A stretch of DNA of 64,000 bases from an uncultured Chloroflexota bacterium (GTDB lineage: Bacteria > Chloroflexota > UBA11872). Shown piece by piece: positions 6,164 through 37,634 of this stretch (positions are counted from its first letter, which is position 1; every line of letters begins with the position of its first letter). The position numbers and the translations under genes were made by a program. The notes beneath the pieces are model-generated. The model was not told where the DNA came from. It worked only from the letters and a program-made list of their open reading frames with translations, and made no database searches. Where the stretch lies: assembly GCA_958296175.1 (NCBI GenBank), contig OY282448.1:719899-783898 (forward strand). Direction: 5' to 3'.

Positions 6164-8710
6164 ATGACGAAACGACTCGTTCTGGCGGCGGTTGCCGTCG
6201 CCGTGCTTCTGTCTGCCGCGGTCTCCGCCGCCCTGGCGCAGTGGCCCACGACCTGCGTCGAGCTGAACGACCTCGCCGAGGCCGCCGCTGGCAACGTCGA
6301 CAACGTCGGCATCTATCAGCGCACCTACGGCGAACAGGCCGAAGCCGTGTGTCAGGCCGAACACCGCAACGACTTCTTCTTTGGCGCCCGCCCGTTCGCC
6401 ACGCCGCCCAAGACCGACCCGGCCGGCTTCACCCAGGCGTTCGTCGAGCGCGCCATCGACCGTTACAACGCCGACGGCATGCAAGCCGCGATCGACTACT
6501 ACAACGCGCCCGAGAGCATGGACGGGCGCTGGTACGTCTTCATCGTGGACGCCGACGGCGTGACGCGCGCCCACCCGAACCCGGAGATTCGCGGGCGCCG
6601 CGTCACCGACGTGCGCGGCCTGGCCGGTTACCCCAACGGCGCGCTGATCGCGGCCGCCGCCGCCGAGGGCGGCGCCTGGACGTCCGACGTGCTGACGGGC
6701 GCGGACGGCCAGCTGGAAACCAAGCACTACTGGCTCGTGCGCTACGACGGGCTGATCTTCGGCTCCGGCTGGTACGAACCCGGCCCCTCCAAGGCCGACG
6801 ACCCCGCCGCCTACACGCAGACCCTGGTGCAGCGCGCCGTGAGCCTCTACGACGCCGTGGGCCGCGACGAAACCTTCGCCCACTACGGCTCGCCGCAGAG
6901 CGTGGACGGCCCCTGGTACGTCTACGTCGCCGACGCGGAGGGCACGCTGCTGTCGCATCCCATCATGCCGGAGCTGGTGGGCGTCGAGGATCTGCGCGGG
7001 ACGGACGGCTTCCCCATCGCCCGGCAAAGCGCGGCCGCGGCCTCCGAGGACGGAGGCTGGGTGCACTACACCTGGACCAACCCGGAAACGGGCACGGCGC
7101 AGACCAAGCATTCCTGGAACGTCCTTCACGACGGGTTGATCTTCGGGTCGGGCTGGTACGAGCCTGCCCCGACCAAGGACGACCCCGCCGCCTTCACCCA
7201 GGCCTTCGTGCAGCAGGCCGTGAACCTCTACGAGGCCGCGGGCCGCGACGAAGCCTTCGCCTACTACGGCTCGCCGCAGAGCGTGGACGGCCCCTGGTAC
7301 GTCTTCGTCGTCGACGCCGGCGGCGAGCTGCTGGTCCACGCCGCGTCGCCGCAGCTGGTTGGACAAAGCCTGCGCGGCCCGCTGGGCACCGACAGCGCCG
7401 GCTACGCCTTCGGCGCCGACATCCTGGCCGCCGACGAGGCCGGGCGCTGGGTCAGCTACATCTTCGACAACCCCGAAACCGGCCAGGCAGGGCTCAAGCA
7501 TTCCTGGGTCCTGCGCCGCGGCGACCTGATCTTCGGCACCGGCTGGTACGAACCCGTCAGTGACGCCGCAGCCTTCACCCAGTCCTACGTGGCCAAAGCC
7601 GTGCAGGTGCTGGAGACCGACGGGCGCCAGGCCGTGCTCGACTACGCCAACGCGCCGGCCAGCGTGCAGGGACCCTGGTACACCTTCATCATCGACCGGG
7701 CCAGCGGCGCCATCGTGGCGCACGGCACGCGCCCGGAGCGCCTGGGCCGCACGCTGGACATCCTGGTGGATGTCTCCGGCTACCACTACGGCGCGGACTT
7801 CGCGCAAGCCACCGCTCAGGGCCGGTGGGTGGACTACATCTTCCTGAACACCGTGACAGGCGCCTACGAGCAGAAGCACTCGTGGGTGGTCGAACGCGAA
7901 GGCCTGATCATCGGCTCTGGCTGGTACGAACCCATCGACCGCGATGCCGACCCCGCGCGCTTCACCCAGGCGTTCGTGGCCAAGGCCCTGCGGCTGCACG
8001 AGACCGACGGGCGCCAGGCCGCCATCGACTACTACAACGCGCCGGCCAGCGTGCAGGGACCCTGGTACATCTTCATCATCGACAAGGCCAGCGGCGCCAT
8101 CGTGGCGCACGGCACGCGCCCGGAGCGCCTGGGCCGCACGCTGGACATCCTGGTGGATGTCTCCGGCTACCACTACGGCGCGGACTTCGCGCAAGCCACC
8201 GCTCAGGGCCGGTGGGTGGACTACATCTTCCTGAACACCGTGACGGGCGCCTACGAGCAGAAGCACTCGTGGGTGGTCGAACGCGAGGGCCTGATCATCG
8301 GCTCCGGCTGGTACGAACCCATCGACCGCGATGCCGACCCCGCGCGCTTCACCCAGGCGTTCGTGGCCAAGGCCCTGCGGCTGCACGAGACCGACGGGCG
8401 CCAGGCCGCCATCGACTACTACAACACCACCGCGAGCGTGGACGGCCCGTGGTACGTCTTCGTCGCCGACGCCAGCGGAGAGATGCTGGCCCACGCCGTG
8501 TCGCCGCAGCTCATTGGCCAAAGCCTGAGCGGCCCGCTGGGCACCGACAGCACCGGCTACGTCTTCGGCGCCGACATCCTGGCCGCCGACGAAACCGGGC
8601 GCTGGGTCGACTACGTCTTCCTGAACCCCACCACGGGCCAGGAAGGCACCAAGCACTCCTGGGTCGTGCGCCGCGGCGACCTGATCTTCGGCTCGGGGTG
8701 GTACGAGTAA
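6164..8710 (+). CDS. secreted protein with an N-terminal two-Cys module followed by six tandem single-Cache (sCache_2-like) domains
   Basis: ATG 6164 preceded by AGGAGG. Signal peptide MTKRLVLAAVAVAVLLSAAVSAALA. Six repeats of roughly 129 aa, each with YNAPxSVDGPWYVFxxDxxGxxxAHxxxPExxG...GxWVxYxxxNPxTGxxxxKHSWVxxxxGLIFGSGWYEP, which matches the sCache_2 pattern. No TM segment and no output domain. Confidence 0.8.
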   Translation: MTKRLVLAAVAVAVLLSAAVSAALAQWPTTCVELNDLAEAAAGNVDNVGIYQRTYGEQAEAVCQAEHRNDFFFGARPFATPPKTDPAGFTQAFVERAIDRYNADGMQAAIDYYNAPESMDGRWYVFIVDADGVTRAHPNPEIRGRRVTDVRGLAGYPNGALIAAAAAEGGAWTSDVLTGADGQLETKHYWLVRYDGLIFGSGWYEPGPSKADDPAAYTQTLVQRAVSLYDAVGRDETFAHYGSPQSVDGPWYVYVADAEGTLLSHPIMPELVGVEDLRGTDGFPIARQSAAAASEDGGWVHYTWTNPETGTAQTKHSWNVLHDGLIFGSGWYEPAPTKDDPAAFTQAFVQQAVNLYEAAGRDEAFAYYGSPQSVDGPWYVFVVDAGGELLVHAASPQLVGQSLRGPLGTDSAGYAFGADILAADEAGRWVSYIFDNPETGQAGLKHSWVLRRGDLIFGTGWYEPVSDAAAFTQSYVAKAVQVLETDGRQAVLDYANAPASVQGPWYTFIIDRASGAIVAHGTRPERLGRTLDILVDVSGYHYGADFAQATAQGRWVDYIFLNTVTGAYEQKHSWVVEREGLIIGSGWYEPIDRDADPARFTQAFVAKALRLHETDGRQAAIDYYNAPASVQGPWYIFIIDKASGAIVAHGTRPERLGRTLDILVDVSGYHYGADFAQATAQGRWVDYIFLNTVTGAYEQKHSWVVEREGLIIGSGWYEPIDRDADPARFTQAFVAKALRLHETDGRQAAIDYYNTTASVDGPWYVFVADASGEMLAHAVSPQLIGQSLSGPLGTDSTGYVFGADILAADETGRWVDYVFLNPTTGQEGTKHSWVVRRGDLIFGSGWYE
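7651..8424 (+). repeat. near-identical 387-bp tandem duplication inside the sCache gene (two copies, 129 codons each)
   Basis: cgcgccggccagcgtgcagggaccctggtaca begins at 7651 and again at 8038. The copies differ by only a few substitutions across about 387 bp. Confidence 0.85.
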
Positions 8711-8800
8711 CCGCCGCGCCGGGTCGAGGCCGCCTGGGCCCGGCGGCGCGCGCGGCCGCGCCGCCAGACGTCCAGGCGCGCGTCGGCTTCGGGCCCCGCC

Positions 8801-10784: not shown

Positions 10785-11852
10785 CTAGTGGTGCACCACC
10801 ACCGGCGTGCCGTGGTCGCAGAAGTTCCAGGCCCAGCGCGAGTCGTCCAGGCGCAGGTTCACGCAGCCCGCGCTGCGTGTCTGGCCGAATTCGTCGTGCC
10901 AGTAGGCGTAGTGAAACCCGATCCAGCGTTCGGTGAAGTACTGAATGTGCTGGATGTCGTCCAGGTCGTATTCGGCCGCGGTGCTGCCGTTGGACACCAT
11001 GCGGGCGCGCGGCACGCGCATGAAGATGCGGTAGCTGCCGCTCGGCGTGTAGTCGGGGTAGACCCCGGTCGAGGTGGCGGCCTGCCGCACCGGCGTATCG
11101 CCGTCGAAGAACGTCACCACCTGGCGCGTGAGGTCCACCTGTGCGCGGCGGTCGGCCGGCGGGCCGTACAGCGGGTCGAGCGCCTGCAGGTCCACCACGG
11201 GCGCGTGCCGCGCGCGCGGGACCGGCGCCATGGGCACGCCCCGCCGGTTGGCCTCCATGATTCCGAGCGGAAGCTGGCTGACGCGGCTGCCGGCCGAGAC
11301 CAGCACCGCGCGGCCAAAGACTTGCCAGAGCGCGTTCGCCCCCTCCACCGCCGGCGCCAGCGGATAGCCGAACCGGAAGACCCCGCCGCTCTCGCGGTGG
11401 TAGGGCCAGAGATCGGGATGCGCGGCCACGCCGGTCTGGCGGAAGTACTGGCCGGGCTGCGGCGCGGACGGCGTCGGCCGCCGGGACACGTAGGCGCGGC
11501 CGATTTCGACCGGAACGACCCCCAGCGGTTCGCGCGAGGTGGGCGCCAGCTCCAGCGCCCCGCGCTCGAAGAACTGCACGCGCCGGCTCCCGAGGCGCAC
11601 CTGCTCGGTCACCGGCCAGCCGATGCCTTCCTCGCGGCCGTATTGCAGCCACCACACCAGCATCGGGCCGCCAAGGTGATGGCCCTGGTCCGGCAGATAG
11701 ATCACCGGCTGGGGCGCGTCGGCCTCGGGCGTGTCGGCGCGGGCGACGCCGGCGCCCACGCTTATGGAGGCGCCGACCGCCGCCAACAGGCGCGTCAGGA
11801 ACGCGCGGCGGGACGGGTTGGAACTCGAAGACAACGAAGGAACAGACACCAA
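10785..11852 (-). CDS. L,D-transpeptidase (YkuD domain) with Tat-type signal peptide
   Basis: C-terminal YRIFMRVP...HIQYFTERWIGFHYAYWHDEFGQTRSAGCVNLRLDD (catalytic His/Cys). N-terminal SRRAFLTRLLAAVGASISVGAGVARA. Start assigned to in-frame TTG/GTG at 11852/11849 after GGGAGA. Confidence 0.8.
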   Translation of the reverse strand: MVSVPSLSSSSNPSRRAFLTRLLAAVGASISVGAGVARADTPEADAPQPVIYLPDQGHHLGGPMLVWWLQYGREEGIGWPVTEQVRLGSRRVQFFERGALELAPTSREPLGVVPVEIGRAYVSRRPTPSAPQPGQYFRQTGVAAHPDLWPYHRESGGVFRFGYPLAPAVEGANALWQVFGRAVLVSAGSRVSQLPLGIMEANRRGVPMAPVPRARHAPVVDLQALDPLYGPPADRRAQVDLTRQVVTFFDGDTPVRQAATSTGVYPDYTPSGSYRIFMRVPRARMVSNGSTAAEYDLDDIQHIQYFTERWIGFHYAYWHDEFGQTRSAGCVNLRLDDSRWAWNFCDHGTPVVVHH

Positions 11853-31559: not shown

Positions 31560-31922
31560 CTAGTCCTCCGCGAACTCGGACATGATCTCGATGTTCGGGG
31601 CCAACCGGCCATCGCGCTCGATCAGCAGTCCCTGCGTATCGAGCACGTGGAGGTCGCGCTGTATCGTTCGGCGGCCGACCCGCCCGTAGACGGCGGCGAG
31701 CGCTCGGCTCTGGTCGTCGTCGTCATACAGTTCGCCGCGCAGCGACGGCCCTGCCAGGCGTCGGATGAAGTCCAGCATGCGCGCCCGCCGCCGGTCGCCA
31801 AGGTCGGGGACATTTTCGAGCCGCTCACGCGCGTACTCGAGAAACGCCGCGGCTCGCCGACGCGCACGCGCATATCGAAGTGCACGTCCCAGCGCGGCAT
31901 CCAAGCGGCCCTCCCGCGACAA
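31560..31922 (-). CDS. small winged-HTH DNA-binding protein (putative autoregulator)
   Basis: 120 aa. C-terminal GRRTIQRDLHVLDTQGLLIERDG recognition helix and wing. Start codon lies inside the TGTCGCG palindrome array. Confidence 0.5.
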   Translation of the reverse strand: MSREGRLDAALGRALRYARARRRAAAFLEYARERLENVPDLGDRRRARMLDFIRRLAGPSLRGELYDDDDQSRALAAVYGRVGRRTIQRDLHVLDTQGLLIERDGRLAPNIEIMSEFAED

Positions 31923-32011
31923 TCGCCGCGACAGTGTCGCATGGATTGTCGCGAAGCTCGAACCTGTTATCCGCCTGTAAATCGCGCGACATTGTCGCGG
32001 TCAATGTCGCG
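31915..32011. promoter_or_regulatory. operator array: five TGTCGCG / CGCGACA half-sites including two perfect palindromes
   Basis: CGCGACA 31915-31921; GCGACAgTGTCGC 31928-31940; TGTCGCG 31947-31953; CGCGACAtTGTCGCG 31985-31999; TGTCGCG 32005-32011. Lower GC than surroundings. Confidence 0.55.
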
Positions 32012-32058
32012 CAGCGCCTACTCTATGCGCCCCAGAAATCACCGTCGCGCTCAGACCC

Positions 32059-32277
32059 TCAGGCCATCAAATCCTCGATGCACTTGTCAATCGCGGCGTA
32101 GTAGCGCTCTGGGCACGGTGGGGCGCCTTTACCTCGTCCGGCATTTGGAGCTCGTCGGCTCGTGAGTCCGCGCGCACGCTTGACTTCGGCGATCCAGCAC
32201 GTCTTTACAGAACCTGGTTTTACGCCGAGCTTTCGAGCCGCACATTCCTGAATCTGCCGATATGTTGGCTCTGGCAT
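32059..32277 (-). CDS. small hypothetical protein (72 aa) in a low-GC patch
   Basis: ORF MPEPTYRQIQECAARKLGVKPGSVKTCWIAEVKRARG...; same orientation as the flanking genes; no family recognised. Confidence 0.3.
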   Translation of the reverse strand: MPEPTYRQIQECAARKLGVKPGSVKTCWIAEVKRARGLTSRRAPNAGRGKGAPPCPERYYAAIDKCIEDLMA

Positions 32278-32288
32278 CCGTCAACCTC

Positions 32289-33383
32289 TCAGCCCTCCCG
32301 CACGAACCGCAGCATCTGCTCGCGCGTCAGGCCGTGCAGCCGCAGGTCGGCCAGCGTGCGGCGGTTGGTGTCCAGCGGCTGGTCGAGCACGGTAAGCCCC
32401 AGGGCGATTACGGCCTCGATGACCGGGGTGGGCGCGTGCAGCGCCTCGCCCAGGCCGGCCCAGGCGCGCAGGCCGTAGGGCACGTCTTCGGAGAGCCAGC
32501 GGGTGTCCAGCTGGCCGGGGGCTTTGAGCGCCGTGAGCATCGGGCTGCCGTTGATCGTGGCCCACAGGTCGGGCGGCTCGGCGCGCGGGCCGAAGCCGGC
32601 GGCGTGAAACGCCTCGGCCGCGTCGGGCAAGTCGTGACCCAGGGCCGCCGCCACCGCGCGGCGTTCGGCGTCCAGCGCCATGATCGCGCGCACCACGCCG
32701 GGGGTCACGCCTTCGTCGTAGAAATAGAACTCGCCGCGCGAGCGCTCGATGCGCCCGGCGTTCAGCAGCACGCCCGGCGGATGCACCACGGGGTTCAAGG
32801 CGCTCAGCCCGCAGGCCAGCACGTCGGGCGCGGGCGCGATGCCGGGAAAGAAGCGCGTCAGCGCGTCCAGCACGCGCGCGGTGTCCCGCGCCGGAAACAC
32901 GCCCAGACTCAGGCGCGGCACCACGCCCCAGATGGTGGCTTCGGCCGGGCCGGTCTTGCGGCAGACGTAGGGCGCGGTGTCGGTTTCGGCCACAGGAATG
33001 GGGGGCGCGCCCGCCTCGCGCAGGATGCCGGCCACTTCCAGCGCCCCCAGCGTGCCCGGCATGAGCGTGAGCGTCTGCCCCTGGCGCAGATGCGGCGCCA
33101 GCGCCCGCGCCCAGGGCGCGTGGGCGTAGGCCGGCACGATCAGCAGCAGCGTGTCCGAGGCGGCCGCGGCTTCCGCCGCGTCGTCCGTAACCGCGGCAAC
33201 CTGCGCCGCGCCCGTCCGCGCCGCGCCGTGCAGCTCGATGACGCCGGACGCGCGCACGGGGTCGATGGCCGCGGCAAACGCCGGCAGCTCCCCCAGCGTC
33301 ACGGCATGCCCGGCCAGCGTCAGATCGGCCGCCGCGGCCAACCCGGTATTGCCCGCGCCCAACACGGTTACGTCGGTATCCAC
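32289..33383 (-). CDS. NAD(P)-dependent octopine/nopaline (opine) dehydrogenase-family protein
   Basis: N-terminal VTVLGAGNTGLAAAADL Rossmann motif; overall similarity to opine dehydrogenases. Confidence 0.65.
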   Translation of the reverse strand: MDTDVTVLGAGNTGLAAAADLTLAGHAVTLGELPAFAAAIDPVRASGVIELHGAARTGAAQVAAVTDDAAEAAAASDTLLLIVPAYAHAPWARALAPHLRQGQTLTLMPGTLGALEVAGILREAGAPPIPVAETDTAPYVCRKTGPAEATIWGVVPRLSLGVFPARDTARVLDALTRFFPGIAPAPDVLACGLSALNPVVHPPGVLLNAGRIERSRGEFYFYDEGVTPGVVRAIMALDAERRAVAAALGHDLPDAAEAFHAAGFGPRAEPPDLWATINGSPMLTALKAPGQLDTRWLSEDVPYGLRAWAGLGEALHAPTPVIEAVIALGLTVLDQPLDTNRRTLADLRLHGLTREQMLRFVREG

Positions 33384-33620
33384 GCGCCCCTCCCCGCAGC
33401 CCGCGGCGGTGACCAGCGTCCTGGCCGCCGTCCGCCTCGACGTGCAATCGCCCCAGCGGGCGCCTGCCTGCGCGCGAGTGTTGCACAGGTCCCTTCCAGC
33501 AAAGCCGCGCGGTGACCAGCGTTCACCCAGCGGCGGCGGCCAGGCCGCGCCGCGCCGTCCGCGCGCGGGCGGCCCGATGCGTTACGGTTCGAGCGCCCGC
33601 GCGTGCGAGACTCGTGCCTG

Positions 33621-34655
33621 ATGAACGGCGATCCGTTCCGCGTTGCCTTGACCGACGGCCTGCGTTACGAGCGCGTGCTGGAGCACCGCCAGCCGCTGGA
33701 CGACGCCGGCGTCGAGCTGGAGGTGGTGGCCGCGCCCGCCAGCGACGCGGAAGCCGCCGCGCGCCTGGCCGGCTTCCAGGGCGTGATCTACTCGCACGGC
33801 CCCTATCGGCTGCACGCCTTCGACCAGCTGCCCGACCTGGTGGGCGTGATTGCGCCCACGGTCGGCGTAGACCACGTCGACGTGCAGGCGGCCACCGCGG
33901 CCGGCGTGGTGGTGGGCAACATCCCGACCTTTGCCACCGAGCAGACCGCCGACATTGCGCTCTACCTGATGCTGGGAGCGGTGCGGCGGCTGCCGCAGAT
34001 TCGGCGGGAATGGGCGGCCGGCCACCGCGCCATTGCGGACTGGGAACGGCGCGTGCCGGCCATTGGGGACATGCGCGGCAGCGTGCTGGCGCTCATCGGC
34101 CTGGGGCGCATCGCCCGCGCCGCGGCCAGCCGCGCCCAGGCCTTTGGCGCGCGCTGCATCGCCTACGCCCCCACGGTCTCGCCCTGGGAAGCGCAGGGAC
34201 TGGGCGTGAACCTGGTGGAACTGTCCGAGGCGCTGGCGCGCGCCGACATCGTGTCGATCCATCTGCCCTACACCCCCGGCACGCACCACTTCATGAACGC
34301 CGCGCGGCTGGCGCAGATGAAGCCCTCGGCCGTGCTTATCAACGTGTCGCGCGGGCCCATCGTGGACGAGGCGGCGCTGGCGGACGCGCTGGAGGCGGGC
34401 GCCATCGCCGGCGCGGGGGTGGACGTGTTCGAAACCGAACCGCCCACCCCGCAGACGCGGCTGGTGAGCCTGCCCAACGTGATCTGGACCCCGCACGTCG
34501 GCGGCTCCACCGGCGTCAGCGTGCACCGCGTCGGCCACGGCGCCGCCGAACAAATGGCCTGGATCGCCCAAGGCTTCTGGCCCCGCGACACCGTAAACCC
34601 CGAAGTCACCCCCCGCCGCCGCCTAACCAGCCGCGGCTATCCCGAGCCGGCATAG
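33621..34655 (+). CDS. D-isomer-specific 2-hydroxyacid dehydrogenase family protein
   Basis: GLGRIARAAASRAQAFGARCIAYAP (GxGxxG); catalytic region INVSRGPIVDEAAL...WTPHVGG. Confidence 0.8.
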   Translation: MNGDPFRVALTDGLRYERVLEHRQPLDDAGVELEVVAAPASDAEAAARLAGFQGVIYSHGPYRLHAFDQLPDLVGVIAPTVGVDHVDVQAATAAGVVVGNIPTFATEQTADIALYLMLGAVRRLPQIRREWAAGHRAIADWERRVPAIGDMRGSVLALIGLGRIARAAASRAQAFGARCIAYAPTVSPWEAQGLGVNLVELSEALARADIVSIHLPYTPGTHHFMNAARLAQMKPSAVLINVSRGPIVDEAALADALEAGAIAGAGVDVFETEPPTPQTRLVSLPNVIWTPHVGGSTGVSVHRVGHGAAEQMAWIAQGFWPRDTVNPEVTPRRRLTSRGYPEPA

Positions 34656-34838
34656 GGCCGAACGGCCCACGCCTCCATGCGGGCCTTGGGATCGTCCCAG
34701 GGTGACGCGGCCTGCGGCTTGCTGCCCCAAGTACCTTCGCGCCACGACCTGCTGGCACCTGCGGTCTCGATGTTCGACCACACGAGCCGGCCAGCGTTCG
34801 TTCGCTTCCGGCAACCGTCGCGGGCGGCATATCCACCG

Positions 34839-35657
34839 CTACGACTGCGAGGCCCCTTCCTGGTCGGCCAGAAACTGCCGCCCGGCGTCGGTGATCTCCC
34901 AGAGGCCGGGAGGAGTTCCGCGCAGCATCAATCCGCGCTGGACCAAGCGCAGTCTGGTGAAATGAACGTTCCACTGCCAGCGGACGCCGCCTGAACGAAC
35001 ATCTTGGTGATCGGTCTCTGTGAACTGGTCGGCCAGCGTTCTCCCAACGTAATCAACGACGAAAGACTTTGGCGCCGACCCGCCTGCTTTCACAAGGGCC
35101 TCCAGGACTGGCGTCGAGTACGCGCTTTGCGGAAGCTTCGGCCCATCTGGGATTCGTGTTCGATTCGCCGTTCCAGCTTCGTCGGCGAGCGCGCCCGCGT
35201 CGGCTGCGACGCTCCGTCCCCGGTCTGTGATTTCCCAGACGCCCCGTGGAGAATCCTGCTTCAGCAACCCGCGTCTGATCATTTCCATCCTGACGACGTG
35301 AACACGAGTGCGCCAGCGGACCCCGCGGCCTGATGGCAAACGCTGGAGGTCGCGCTCCGTCAGGCGGTCGGCGAGTTCCTTCTCGACGGCCTCGATGACG
35401 CTGACCGCCGGGGCCGCCCCGCCAGCTTCCACGAGGGTCGTCAAGATCGGCGCTGTGAACTCGCTTTGCGGCAGCACCGACCCTCGGCGCACGCTGGCAC
35501 CGGTCGCCGCGGGCTCCAACCCAAGGAGCCGCCGTAGAACGCTGTTCGGCGTGTCGACGAATGGTTCAGCGCACGCTTGCAAATACGCAAACACATCCTC
35601 GTCGACCGTGATCTTCTGAGCCCTGTTGATCTCCAATGTGCAACTACCGTCCTTCAT
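34839..35657 (-). CDS. DNA-binding protein: N-terminal ribbon-helix-helix-like segment plus two tandem Mrr_N-like winged-helix domains (paralog 1)
   Basis: 272 aa. KITVDEDVFAYLQACAEPFVDTPNSVLRRLLGL, then two repeats LPQSEx...GGSAP...LADxxTExDxQxxxSGxVRWxxxVxxxRxxLxxxGLxxxxxPxGxWEITDxGR. Low-GC gene (about 55%). Confidence 0.6.
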   Translation of the reverse strand: MKDGSCTLEINRAQKITVDEDVFAYLQACAEPFVDTPNSVLRRLLGLEPAATGASVRRGSVLPQSEFTAPILTTLVEAGGAAPAVSVIEAVEKELADRLTERDLQRLPSGRGVRWRTRVHVVRMEMIRRGLLKQDSPRGVWEITDRGRSVAADAGALADEAGTANRTRIPDGPKLPQSAYSTPVLEALVKAGGSAPKSFVVDYVGRTLADQFTETDHQDVRSGGVRWQWNVHFTRLRLVQRGLMLRGTPPGLWEITDAGRQFLADQEGASQS

Positions 35658-35735
35658 TCAGAGGCTTGCAGCCAACATTTATACAATGCACAACGGTTAG
35701 ATTCGCTTTCGCTGTCCCTCAGCAGTATCCATCTG

Positions 35736-36524
35736 CTATGGCCGCTCGTTGCTTTCTGCGTCAGTCAGGAATTGCCGCCCGGCGCCGGTGATCTCCCAGA
35801 GGCCGTGTGGGCTGTCTTGTCTCAGCAACCCGCTCCTGACCAACTGCAGCCTAGCGAACTGCGTGCGACTCCTCCATCGGATTTCCCGGGCGGACGAAAG
35901 TTGCTGGCGGTCAAGTTCCGTCAGCCTGTCGGCAAGTATCCGCCCAACTGAGTCAACGACGTCGACCGTTGGCGCAGACCCGCCTGCCTCCACAAGCGTC
36001 CTCAAGACTGGCAATAAATATTCGGTCTGTGGAAGCCATGGTCCCCTAGCTGGGATATCTTGCTTTCCCTCGCTCGGTTTGTCTACGGGGGGATCCGCGT
36101 TCGTTAAGAATCGCCGCCCGGCTTCTGTTATCTCCCAGCTGCCGGGTGGAGTTCCACGCGTTATCAAGCCACGCTTGACCATCTGCGACTTGGCAACTTG
36201 TGCGCGATGCCGCCATCGAACGGGGCCTGACGATAATCGCTGAAGGTCAGCCCCTGTTAGCCGTCCGGCCAGCTGGCTCCAAACGGCATCCAGGACATCA
36301 GTCAACTTCGCCGACCCTCCGGCGTCTATGAGTGCCGTTAAGATTGGCACCATGTATTCGTCACTAGGCAGCAATGATTTTTTAGTCTTTACGGGGGGAT
36401 TCTCGTCGGGACGCCCAAGCCCCAAAAGCCGCCGTAGGACAGTGTTTGGCGTGTCGACGAAAGGCTTGGCCTTCGACTGGAGGAGTTCGTACACTTCCTC
36501 GTCCACGTCGATCCGCCGAACCAC
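35736..36524 (-). CDS. DNA-binding protein: RHH-like segment plus two Mrr_N-like winged-helix domains (paralog 2)
   Basis: GTG 36524 after GGAGGAAGCGG. IDVDEEVYELLQSKAKPFVDTPNTVLRRLLGL, then two repeats ending GSWEITEAGRRFL and GLWEITGAGRQFL. Low GC. Confidence 0.6.
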   Translation of the reverse strand: MVRRIDVDEEVYELLQSKAKPFVDTPNTVLRRLLGLGRPDENPPVKTKKSLLPSDEYMVPILTALIDAGGSAKLTDVLDAVWSQLAGRLTGADLQRLSSGPVRWRHRAQVAKSQMVKRGLITRGTPPGSWEITEAGRRFLTNADPPVDKPSEGKQDIPARGPWLPQTEYLLPVLRTLVEAGGSAPTVDVVDSVGRILADRLTELDRQQLSSAREIRWRSRTQFARLQLVRSGLLRQDSPHGLWEITGAGRQFLTDAESNERP

Positions 36525-36635
36525 CCGCTTCCTCCGAATCGTATGGGAGGGCCTGCGCGCACCATGCCCTACCCCTCCTCTGCTTGCAAGAATCCCGGCC
36601 CTTCGGCGTGCCGCCGGAAGCCTTAGGGGGCGCAC

Positions 36636-37634
36636 ATGACGGCTGGTCCTATCCGCTGGGGGATTTTGTCTACGGCGGCCATTGCTCGGCGGGCGGTGGG
36701 GCCGGCGATTCGGTTGGCTCGGAATGGGGTGTTGCGGGCGGTGGGGAGCCGTTCGTTGGGGCGGGCGCGGGCGTTTGCGGCGGAGCTGGAGATTCCGGCG
36801 GCGCATGGGTCGTACGAGGCTCTGCTGGCGGACCCGACGGTGGACGCGGTGTACGTGCCGCTGCCAACGGCGCTGCATCGGGACTGGGTGCTGGCGGCGG
36901 CGCGGGCTGGCAAGCACGTGCTGGTGGACAAGCCGTTTGCGGTGAACGCGGCGGAAGCGGCGGAGATGGCGGCGGCCTGCCGCCGCGCCGGGGTGCAGCT
37001 GCTGGAGGGCTTTATGTACCGCTACGACCCTCGGCACGCGCGGCTGCGGGCGCTGGCGGCCGACGGCGCGATTGGCGAGCTGCGGCGCGTGGTCACGGCG
37101 TTTGCGTTTCCCATCACGCGCAACGCGGCCAACGTGCGGCTGTCCCGCGCGCTGGCGGGCGGGGCGCTGGGCGACCTGGGGACCTATTGCGTGAGCGTCA
37201 GCCGTTTGCACCTGGGCGGCGAGCCTCGGCGGGCGGCGGCGCGCCTGGAGGTGGACGCCGAGTTTGGCGTGGACGTGGACGGGTCGGCGCTGCTGGACTT
37301 CGGCGCGGGGCGCGCGGCCGTGCTGGACTTCAGCTTCCAGACGGCGCGGCGGCAGTCGCTGGCGCTGGTTGGAACGGCGGGCGTCATCCAGGCCGAGCGC
37401 CATATTCTGGACGGCGGCGCGCCGAGCGAGATTCGGATTCGAACGGCGGGCCGCACGCTGACGGAGCGCTTCGAGCCGTTCGACCCTTACCGGGCGGAGG
37501 TGGAAAATCTGGGGGACGCCGTGCACGGCCTGGCGCCGCCGCTGGTGGACGGGGACGAAGCGGTGCGCAACATGCGCGTGCTGGACGCCGTGCGCGCCAG
37601 CGCGCGGCGCGGCGCCTGGGAGGAGCTGACATGA
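36636..37634 (+). CDS. Gfo/Idh/MocA-family oxidoreductase
   Basis: IRWGILSTAAIARRAVGPAI...VLVDKPFA... typical of the family. Confidence 0.8.
   Translation: MTAGPIRWGILSTAAIARRAVGPAIRLARNGVLRAVGSRSLGRARAFAAELEIPAAHGSYEALLADPTVDAVYVPLPTALHRDWVLAAARAGKHVLVDKPFAVNAAEAAEMAAACRRAGVQLLEGFMYRYDPRHARLRALAADGAIGELRRVVTAFAFPITRNAANVRLSRALAGGALGDLGTYCVSVSRLHLGGEPRRAAARLEVDAEFGVDVDGSALLDFGAGRAAVLDFSFQTARRQSLALVGTAGVIQAERHILDGGAPSEIRIRTAGRTLTERFEPFDPYRAEVENLGDAVHGLAPPLVDGDEAVRNMRVLDAVRASARRGAWEELT

Follow-up and report, generated by a model that had tools for sequence, protein, structure and literature searches.

We analyzed a stretch of 64,000 nucleotides (nt) from an uncultured Chloroflexota bacterium (contig OY282448.1, hereafter the window), in which two paralogous genes on the minus strand, gene A (34839-35657) and gene B (35736-36524), make up a small island of foreign composition. 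The best reading of our results is that both genes descend from the controller-position (first) gene of a horizontally mobile three-gene module, which in related genomes also encodes a predicted GHKL ATPase and a DNA methylase. With only slightly more confidence than doubt, we propose that A and B are the orphaned, duplicated, double-headed controller of such a paraMORC-like module and probably act as a dimeric autoregulator. On this reading the pair in the window is an orphan regulator and not a complete or working defense system.

Two paralogous Mrr_N proteins on a low-GC island

Gene B encodes a protein of 262 amino acids (aa) from a GTG start (36524-36522) and gene A encodes a protein of 272 aa from an ATG start, the exact sequence of which is recorded as P0001. 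Both have the same architecture, a SeqA_N-like N-terminus followed by two Mrr_N units, and they are 50% identical over 256 residues, that is, over their whole length (E 3e-79). Pfam found two Mrr_N domains (PF14338) per protein, with E values of 1.3e-24 and 2.8e-26 and scores (86.6 and 91.9 bits) well above the cut-off of 29.5. Our own family hidden Markov models (HMMs), run on the six-frame translation, recovered all four Mrr_N units with E values from 1e-31 to 1e-41 and gave the positions of the subdomains on the minus strand. For gene B these were 36417-36521 (N-terminal module), 36096-36380 (Mrr_N-1), and 35754-36050 (Mrr_N-2), and for gene A 35514-35621, 35199-35486, and 34857-35150, respectively. 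The four units showed 48-57% mutual identity and 51-60% identity to the single unit of two relatives in Chloroflexota (L001 and L002), and both duplications, the internal one and the tandem one, are therefore old. All 27 family-invariant residues were kept in both A and B despite their ~50% divergence, which argues for a function of the two proteins.

The N-terminal 35-45 residues had SeqA_N as their sole Pfam match, and this match was sub-threshold (18.2 and 22.8 bits against a cut-off of 23; E 1.5e-3 and 5.8e-5). The N-termini showed weak SeqA and SepA matches in NCBIfam (NF008389 at 22.1 bits, cut-off 185), and a family profile run against all PDB sequences matched only SeqA N-terminal chains (1xrx at E 0.038). 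Ribbon-helix-helix (RHH) families of the RHH_1 type gave no Pfam match to A or B at E values up to 1, and the SeqA_C domain was absent from both proteins in Pfam and NCBIfam. Judged by these matches, the N-terminus resembles the SeqA oligomerization domain more closely than any DNA-binding RHH family. Pfam found no nuclease, no Mrr_cat PD-(D/E)xK domain, and no further enzyme domain in A or B, and likewise neither a ligand-binding domain nor an XRE-type helix-turn-helix (HTH_3/HTH_31).

The AlphaFold2 (AF2) model of the gene B protein had a mean predicted local distance difference test (pLDDT) score of 83.8, with the two winged helices above 90; residues 1-34 of this monomer model formed a coil-helix-helix with pLDDT 55-79. 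Foldseek comparison of the model with PDB returned generic single or tandem winged helices only (best E 1.3e-3) and was uninformative. Against PADLOC-DB 2.0, gene B matched mREase_IV within profile positions 8-93 of 317, which is the Mrr_N part, and gene A matched nothing. Because this domain-level match of gene B was the sole one, A and B fall outside the known PADLOC systems.

The guanine plus cytosine (GC) content of the island (34660-36630) was 62.0%, against 72.2% for the whole window. Of all 2-kb stretches in the window, the one lowest in GC lay here (0.617; mean 0.722, standard deviation 0.024), about 4 standard deviations below the mean. GC at third codon positions (GC3) was 0.73 in gene A and 0.64 in gene B, against 0.87-0.92 in the neighboring genes. 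The two paralogs were the only content of the island, with no small toxin gene (PIN, RelE, ParE) beside them. The island borders were searched for direct repeats, tRNA genes, and integrase genes and had none, and a sigma-70 consensus promoter was not found either; the repeats detected in the island were its four Mrr_N-coding units.

An earlier reading of the window, made from its letters alone (the sequence-only reading), had described a GC drop to 50-55%. The dip is real, but its value is 62%, and 55% was reached by just one 300-nt segment within the island. The same reading was right that the island encodes two paralogous genes only, both of which are intact and co-oriented open reading frames (ORFs), that each protein carries two Mrr_N units, and that no nuclease or effector is attached to them. 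The RHH fold that it had assigned to the N-terminus stood as far as the beta-alpha-alpha order of the segment but not as a match to an RHH family, and the check for direct repeats at the borders, which it had suggested, yielded internal Mrr_N units only.

The spacer between B and A (35658-35735, minus strand, 78 nt, 47% GC) had neither a detectable sigma-70-like promoter nor a detectable terminator, and the two genes are for this reason probably co-transcribed. On the distal side, a spacer of 183 nt with 70% GC (34656-34838) runs from the stop of a 2-hydroxyacid dehydrogenase (2-HADH) gene (33603-34655) to the stop of gene A, and no repeat, tRNA, or att-like feature was found in it. On the other side of the island lies a Gfo/Idh/MocA oxidoreductase gene (36636-37634, hereafter Gfo). 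Since genes for a Zn-dependent alcohol dehydrogenase (Zn-ADH), an enolase-superfamily protein, and an octopine dehydrogenase (octopine-DH)-like protein are also close to the island, the sugar-acid cluster named in the sequence-only reading, or an oxidoreductase cluster, is plausible from annotation. A second, smaller GC dip (60-64%) was seen at 31800-32400 of the window, between an unannotated gene of 374 aa and the octopine-DH-like gene. It contains an ORF of 72 aa (32059-32277, minus strand) with no Pfam match.

The family, its three-gene module and a shared chromosomal slot

Relatives of A and B were sought by a word-indexed search, which found 337, and by an exhaustive phmmer search of 1.84 billion representatives, which gave 2,483 cluster representatives at E <= 1e-3 and 1,141 at E <= 1e-10. 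In a typical member, of 150-190 aa, the family N-terminus carries the invariant motif A-E-P-F-V-D-T-P-N-x-V-L-R-R-L-L-G-L and is joined to a single Mrr_N by a basic linker that is disordered. The database names of these proteins are 'hypothetical', 'winged helix-turn-helix domain-containing', and, on account of their resemblance to SeqA_N, 'negative regulator of replication initiation'. A scan of 185,579 species genomes yielded 192 relatives, and 80 loci were analyzed. Most of these were metagenome-assembled genomes (MAGs) of Solirubrobacterales, other Actinomycetota, Chloroflexota, and Acidimicrobiia; the remainder were one archaeon and small numbers of Proteobacteria, Nitrospira, and Acidobacteriota. 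A search of 2.9 million viral contigs gave 2 relatives, neither being of the RHH type, and 72,556 plasmids gave 2 matches (to the N-terminal module only), so that in these collections phages and plasmids are not the main carriers of the family.

Across the 80 loci, 73 family ORFs had the one-Mrr_N form, and the two-Mrr_N form was represented by the window pair only. A doubled Mrr_N that is unique to the window was ruled out by the exhaustive search. Two proteins (P0170 and P0264) had a full-length RHH plus two Mrr_N arrangement at 33-35% identity, and proteins with three or four Mrr_N units were found elsewhere. Another tandem pair, independent of that in the window, was located at L084:6930-9639; its paralogs (294 and 259 aa, one of them P0264) likewise combine RHH with two Mrr_N. 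Tandem Mrr_N units were also found preceded by other domains, namely a coiled coil, an HSDR_N nuclease-like domain (P0138), and a UvrD helicase (P0248). The architecture of A and B is thus a rare variant of a large uncharacterized family.

Other domain combinations were seen in single cases. In two Streptomyces loci (L078:9986-19336 and L080:9785-19220) the N-terminal module stood without Mrr_N, beside convergent ORFs of ~1,900 aa and ~1,000 aa. On a viral-flagged contig (L082:2117-8378), a protein of 296 aa combined an N-terminus that is ArsR-like by eye with a coiled coil and Mrr_N. It lay ~1.1 kb downstream of a 1,416-aa enzyme that is type IIG restriction-modification-like by eye, with two small ORFs between them.

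Recurrent neighbors were found by clustering all neighboring ORFs of the 80 loci. In 20 of these loci the next gene downstream of the family gene, co-directional with it and separated by a median gap of 24 nt, encoded a protein of ~820 aa. Right behind this gene, a convergent gene for a ~410-aa protein was present in 13 loci. Pfam (E 4e-12) and PADLOC (MTase_II) identify this protein as an N6_N4 DNA methylase. The three-gene module was recorded at L002:9880-14260 and L085:2770-7170 and also in L003, L005, L006, L008, L013, L017, L027, L028, L031, L053, and L055.

In the alignment of the ~820-aa partner, two Bergerat-fold motifs were invariant, ExxxNxxD (E71/N75/D78 in L002 numbering) and DxGxG (D157/G159/G161), and the only Pfam match of this protein was a weak, sub-threshold one to HATPase_c_3. 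Foldseek placed Hsp90, topoisomerase VI-B, and GyrB at the top for its AF2 model (pLDDT 66.9), with E values from 9e-7 to 3e-5, followed by matches to an Ig-like domain; the C-terminus was helical. The motifs and the model together point to a GHKL-type/transducer ATPase. No nuclease fold was seen with AF2 and Foldseek, no DUF4263, RecB, HNH, or TIR domain was found, PADLOC gave no match, and PDB sequence and profile searches were empty. This partner had more than 3,000 relatives (clusters at 90% identity) at E <= 1e-10, all named 'hypothetical'. Many of them were on contigs equal in length to those of the family matches, which serves as a proxy for a shared contig.

The module was foreign in composition wherever it was checked, with GC3 of 0.52-0.58 against 0.85-0.90 in L002 and similar values in L055 and L008. 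The family gene was below the GC of its locus in 67 of the 80 loci, and in 7 loci a tyrosine integrase lay within a few kb of it. Among 136 other neighboring proteins examined with Pfam and PADLOC, in a census that depends on a heuristic choice of ORFs and yields counts only, we found type IIG restriction-modification enzymes (3), HATPase_c_3 (4), HTH_31 (4), PIN (3), UvrD/GajB-like (2), and mad2 (MADS; 2) proteins, as well as transposases, RepB, and ordinary metabolic proteins. A four-gene variant was present in L033:9785-14925 and L010:1045-6204, where the family gene is accompanied by genes for an unknown of ~230 aa, a HATPase_c_3 protein of ~545 aa (E 1e-14), and a protein of ~720 aa that matches RNA_pol_A_CTD and Sigma70_r4. 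Eleven Solirubrobacterales-type loci (Solirubrobacteraceae and related) had a different context of UvrA, a 124-aa unknown, and a nitroreductase, which looks like vertical inheritance. In the literature searched, neither the ~820-aa partner family nor any Mrr_N/SeqA_N controller was described, and searches on Mrr_N, PF14338, SeqA_N, and PF17206 returned essentially nothing pertinent. The set of family gene, GHKL gene, and methylase gene looks like an undescribed restriction-modification-like system.

The window and its relatives share one chromosomal slot. The 2-HADH, Gfo, and Zn-ADH proteins of the window showed 70-78% identity to the flanks of the family gene in the Chloroflexota MAGs L001-L003. 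The order in L002 and L003 is Gfo (minus), family gene (plus), an 829-aa GHKL gene (plus), methylase (minus), and 2-HADH (minus). L085, which holds the closest non-paralogous relative of the window proteins (P0002), has the family gene, a gene for an 817-aa GHKL protein, and an intact methylase gene, followed by orthologs of 2-HADH (64%) and octopine-DH (79.5%). In L001 the family gene is followed by ~1 kb with two odd tRNA-like genes and no GHKL or methylase remnants. In the window the two double-headed paralogs fill the slot, and nothing in the 64 kb resembles the GHKL protein or the methylase: the best tblastn match to four queries, two for each protein, had E 0.17. The shared slot and the foreign composition thus make the window island one state of a variable foreign module. 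A single slot here offers a natural series of full module, controller alone, and duplicated double-headed controller, and this series could show either the decay of defense modules or the retention and reuse of their regulators.

Three further features of the slot were recorded. The two tRNA-like genes of L001 are adjacent (10867-10941 and 10946-11021) and lie where L002 and L003 have the GHKL and methylase genes. ARAGORN reported one as tRNA-Ser (anticodon ACT) and the other as a tRNA whose anticodon loop has 8 nt, and the Rfam tRNA scores were 66 and 40 bits. In L085 a DUF559/MTES_1575 gene (Vsr-like endonuclease fold; 8400-8750) sits between the 2-HADH and octopine-DH orthologs, one gene past the module methylase, and is absent in the window. 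An intergenic palindrome of L002 and L003, AACGATTGCAATCTAGATTGCAATCGTT, was considered as a shared element and rejected, as it is not conserved in the window.

The sequence-only reading had proposed that A and B could be the sensor or regulator part of a defense system whose effector lies elsewhere. The regulator-type proteins, the restriction-like ancestry, and the foreign DNA bear this out in part, as do the GHKL ATPase and methylase of the relatives and the type IIG enzymes, integrases, and PIN proteins nearby, but the locus itself is not a defense system. Ordinary metabolic neighborhoods, which that reading had named as evidence to the contrary, did not appear as a recurrent pattern over the 80 loci. 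The architecture, which that reading did not know as described, is not unique: RHH plus two to four Mrr_N occurs elsewhere, and there are thousands of one-Mrr_N relatives.

A split system, in which a four-headed A/B complex would read foreign or modified DNA and signal to an effector encoded elsewhere, is unlikely. Relatives are found in restriction-modification contexts, and the fusions of tandem Mrr_N to effector-type domains in P0138 (HSDR_N-like) and P0248 (UvrD) would suit such a system. So would L084, where an ORF of 284 aa behind the tandem pair contains the HNH-like motif DH...N...CHECH and where IS605 OrfB and DUF5131 genes lie in the vicinity. However, this ORF has no Pfam match to support the motif, PADLOC recognizes the Mrr_N domain only, and nothing GHKL- or methylase-like lies within the 64 kb. 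Furthermore, the partners are adjacent and apparently operonic in every informative relative. Because they are always adjacent there and have left no trace in the window, an effector encoded elsewhere is less likely than one that was lost or never arrived.

TTGCAA promoter arrays, proposed mechanism and alternatives

Hexamer enrichment was computed on the 150 nt upstream of family genes (79 regions) against dinucleotide-preserving shuffles. TTGCAA was the top enriched hexamer, with 62 copies in 31 of the 79 regions against 4.3 ± 1.9 expected (maximum 10). It was present upstream in 19 of the 20 loci with a GHKL partner, compared with 12 of the 59 others. Between -3 and +6 kb of the GHKL loci, 44 of ~65 TTGCAA copies fell in the 250 nt before the gene, and the spacings of TTGCAA/TTGTAA sites were clustered at 12, 19-24, and 31-34 nt. 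The usual layout, seen in most GHKL-partner loci, was TTGCAA-N17-TAnnnT, flanked by two more copies of TTGCAA, one 12 nt away on the upstream side and one ~33 nt downstream, close to where transcription is expected to start. This layout identifies TTGCAA as the -35 box. The arrays have the geometry of a self-repressed promoter, and they are a candidate operator and possibly the target of the methylase.

A family-type promoter was also found before gene B (36561-36589, minus strand), consisting of TTGCAA (36589-36584), a 17-nt spacer, and CATGGT (36566-36561). This TTGCAA precedes the start of gene B by ~60 nt and, on the other side, the start codon of the divergent Gfo gene by 47 nt. Direct reading of the sequence showed a Shine-Dalgarno sequence, GGAGGAAG (36528-36535, minus strand), with the GTG start 3 nt downstream of it. 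The whole window contained 8 copies of TTGCAA, including the gene B box and one inside gene A. Gene B did not have the flanking copies seen in its relatives, and the region upstream of gene A had no TTGCAA and one-mismatch variants only.

From the domain content, paralogy, foreign composition, shared slot, gene linkage, and promoter arrays shown above, we propose the following mechanism. In the controller, a second Mrr_N winged helix would have replaced the disordered basic linker that is usual in the family, and the double-headed gene would have been duplicated in tandem. The SeqA_N-like beta-alpha-alpha N-terminus may form homodimers or A/B heterodimers. The winged helices, four per dimer, would bind short TTGCAA-type palindromes on one face of the helix, and in this way A and B may autoregulate the B-A operon. 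By position, they could possibly also regulate the divergent Gfo/ADH operon. The partner ATPase and methylase would have been lost, as opposed to never having been present.

Several points weigh against this proposal. The N-terminal assignment comes from sub-threshold matches and from a segment modeled with pLDDT 55-79 as a monomer, and the binding of TTGCAA by family members is a prediction. The lone TTGCAA of gene B may be just a -35 box, and since gene B has one TTGCAA and gene A has none, the operator logic of the relatives may not apply to the window. The partner genes could exist elsewhere in the genome, beyond the 64 kb. Repeated replacement at a hotspot, rather than loss, is also possible, because an ancestral insertion should by now have lost its GC3 gap (the flank proteins are only ~72% identical). 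The persistence of this gap argues against a single old insertion.

The missing operator copies around the -35 box and the absent partner genes would also fit a functionless remnant of a decayed island, and family genes are frameshifted in three other loci (L051, L061, and L079). We nevertheless consider such a remnant very unlikely. Both ORFs are full length and keep all invariant residues at 50% mutual identity, their four Mrr_N units are still recognized at the E values given above, and gene B retains a promoter-like box and a strong Shine-Dalgarno sequence.

The position of the gene B box bears on another explanation, to which we assign the lowest probability: A and B would be transcription factors of an ordinary kind that act locally on the oxidoreductase or sugar-acid genes next to them. 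Gene B is divergent from Gfo and 111 nt apart from it, the TTGCAA is close to the Gfo start, and the family gene is likewise divergent from Gfo in L001-L003. However, no metabolic partner of the family recurred across the 80 loci, while the GHKL protein and the methylase did recur, and the module of L085 adjoins the 2-HADH side but not Gfo. The foreign composition and the lack of a ligand-binding domain in A and B also speak against a local role.

The spacing of the arrays raises the alternative of a SeqA-like methylation reader, which would bind methylated, hemimethylated, or unmethylated paired TTGCAA-type sites. In the relatives such a protein would make the ATPase depend, in its expression or its activity, on the methylation state that the partner methylase imposes, and in the window it would be a stand-alone epigenetic or xenogeneic DNA binder. 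We regard this as quite unlikely in both settings. SeqA N-terminal domains are the only solved relatives of the N-terminus, and SeqA is built likewise, with an oligomerization domain, a flexible linker, and a DNA-binding domain; its dimers prefer paired sites on the same helix face (PMC2691817). The site spacings of 12, ~22, and ~33 nt fit one, two, and three helical turns, a methylase belongs to the module, and TTGCAA is a palindromic hexamer like the targets of type II enzymes. On the other hand, operator-promoter geometry with sites at -35 and +1 also explains the phasing, and no methylase is linked to the pair in the window. For Mrr-N itself the published description goes no further than 'presumed DNA binding' (PMC3874153), and the winged helices of restriction enzymes may be methyl-dependent or not (PMC11037411). 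The label of modified-DNA sensor, which the sequence-only reading had given to Mrr_N, is accordingly a presumption in the literature and a lead rather than a fact.

If A and B were such readers, TTGCAA could have two roles, being modified by the linked methylase and serving the family gene as its operator, so that methylation of the host would gate expression of the GHKL enzyme, a link that we hold to be just as improbable. The window pair could then act as a stand-alone reader of such sites, for example in silencing or excluding incoming modules of the same kind at the slot, a role that has the same low standing with us. If true, methylation-gated GHKL expression would mean that a restriction-modification-like system can be established by a new logic.

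Comparison with known systems

Known C proteins (such as C.PvuII and C.Esp1396I), the controllers of restriction-modification systems, are XRE-type helix-turn-helix dimers of ~80-100 aa. There are several likenesses between C-protein systems and the relatives of the window pair. In both, the gene of a DNA-binding protein comes first in an operon with a large enzyme, the methylase gene is separate and convergent, and repeated palindromic boxes overlap the promoter of the controller itself. In contrast to C proteins, the family has a SeqA_N-like N-terminus and Mrr_N winged helices and no XRE-type helix-turn-helix, and the downstream enzyme of the relatives is a predicted GHKL ATPase without a recognizable nuclease. 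The window differs further in having no downstream enzyme or methylase and one TTGCAA box only.

The likeness to SeqA, the replication-origin sequestration protein of E. coli, lies in the ~35-residue beta-alpha-alpha module (IEVDDELY...ILRRML in SeqA and IDVDEEVY...VLRRLL in the family), in the linker and DNA-binding domain that follow it, and in target sites paired at whole helical turns. However, the family has no SeqA_C and no link to GATC, and its matches to SeqA are below the cut-offs. To our knowledge, the Chloroflexota and Actinomycetota hosts lack SeqA/Dam biology. With the Mrr type IV restriction endonuclease, A and B share the N-terminal winged-helix family PF14338 above the cut-off, but they are without the Mrr_cat PD-(D/E)xK domain and have two winged helices per chain, compared with one in Mrr. 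Two winged helices per chain are also found in MukE, JetB, and other kite proteins, which were the best whole-model Foldseek matches of gene B. With E values from 1e-3 to 5e-2, root-mean-square deviations of 17-18 Å, and identities of 10-13%, these matches are a generic likeness of fold and not evidence of homology. The pair also differs from type II toxin-antitoxin systems with RHH antitoxins, as no toxin gene lies beside A and B; PIN proteins made up 3 of the 136 neighboring proteins of the other loci.

Described systems that resemble the module include the paraMORC GHKL ATPases, which are encoded alongside methylases in restriction-modification operons (PMC2292703; Iyer, Abhiman and Aravind 2008). 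A GHKL-nuclease, the GHKL-Shedu protein VcSduA, has experimentally shown anti-phage activity (PMC12137116). Neither of these papers (PMC2292703 and PMC12137116) mentions Mrr_N or SeqA_N partners. As in paraMORC/MORC systems, the relatives link a predicted GHKL and transducer ATPase to a DNA methylase on foreign-looking DNA. The ~820-aa partner differs from paraMORC and VcSduA in having no Pfam family and no nuclease domain, and in its Ig-like domain and helical C-terminus, and the window itself holds neither the GHKL ATPase nor the methylase of a paraMORC module. The three-gene module is widespread in soil Actinomycetota and Chloroflexota and, as far as we found, unnamed, and it is a concrete candidate for a new restriction-modification-like defense system with a non-HTH controller. 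The pair in the window is modest in itself, and its value is as a pointer to this unnamed module with its clear putative operator.

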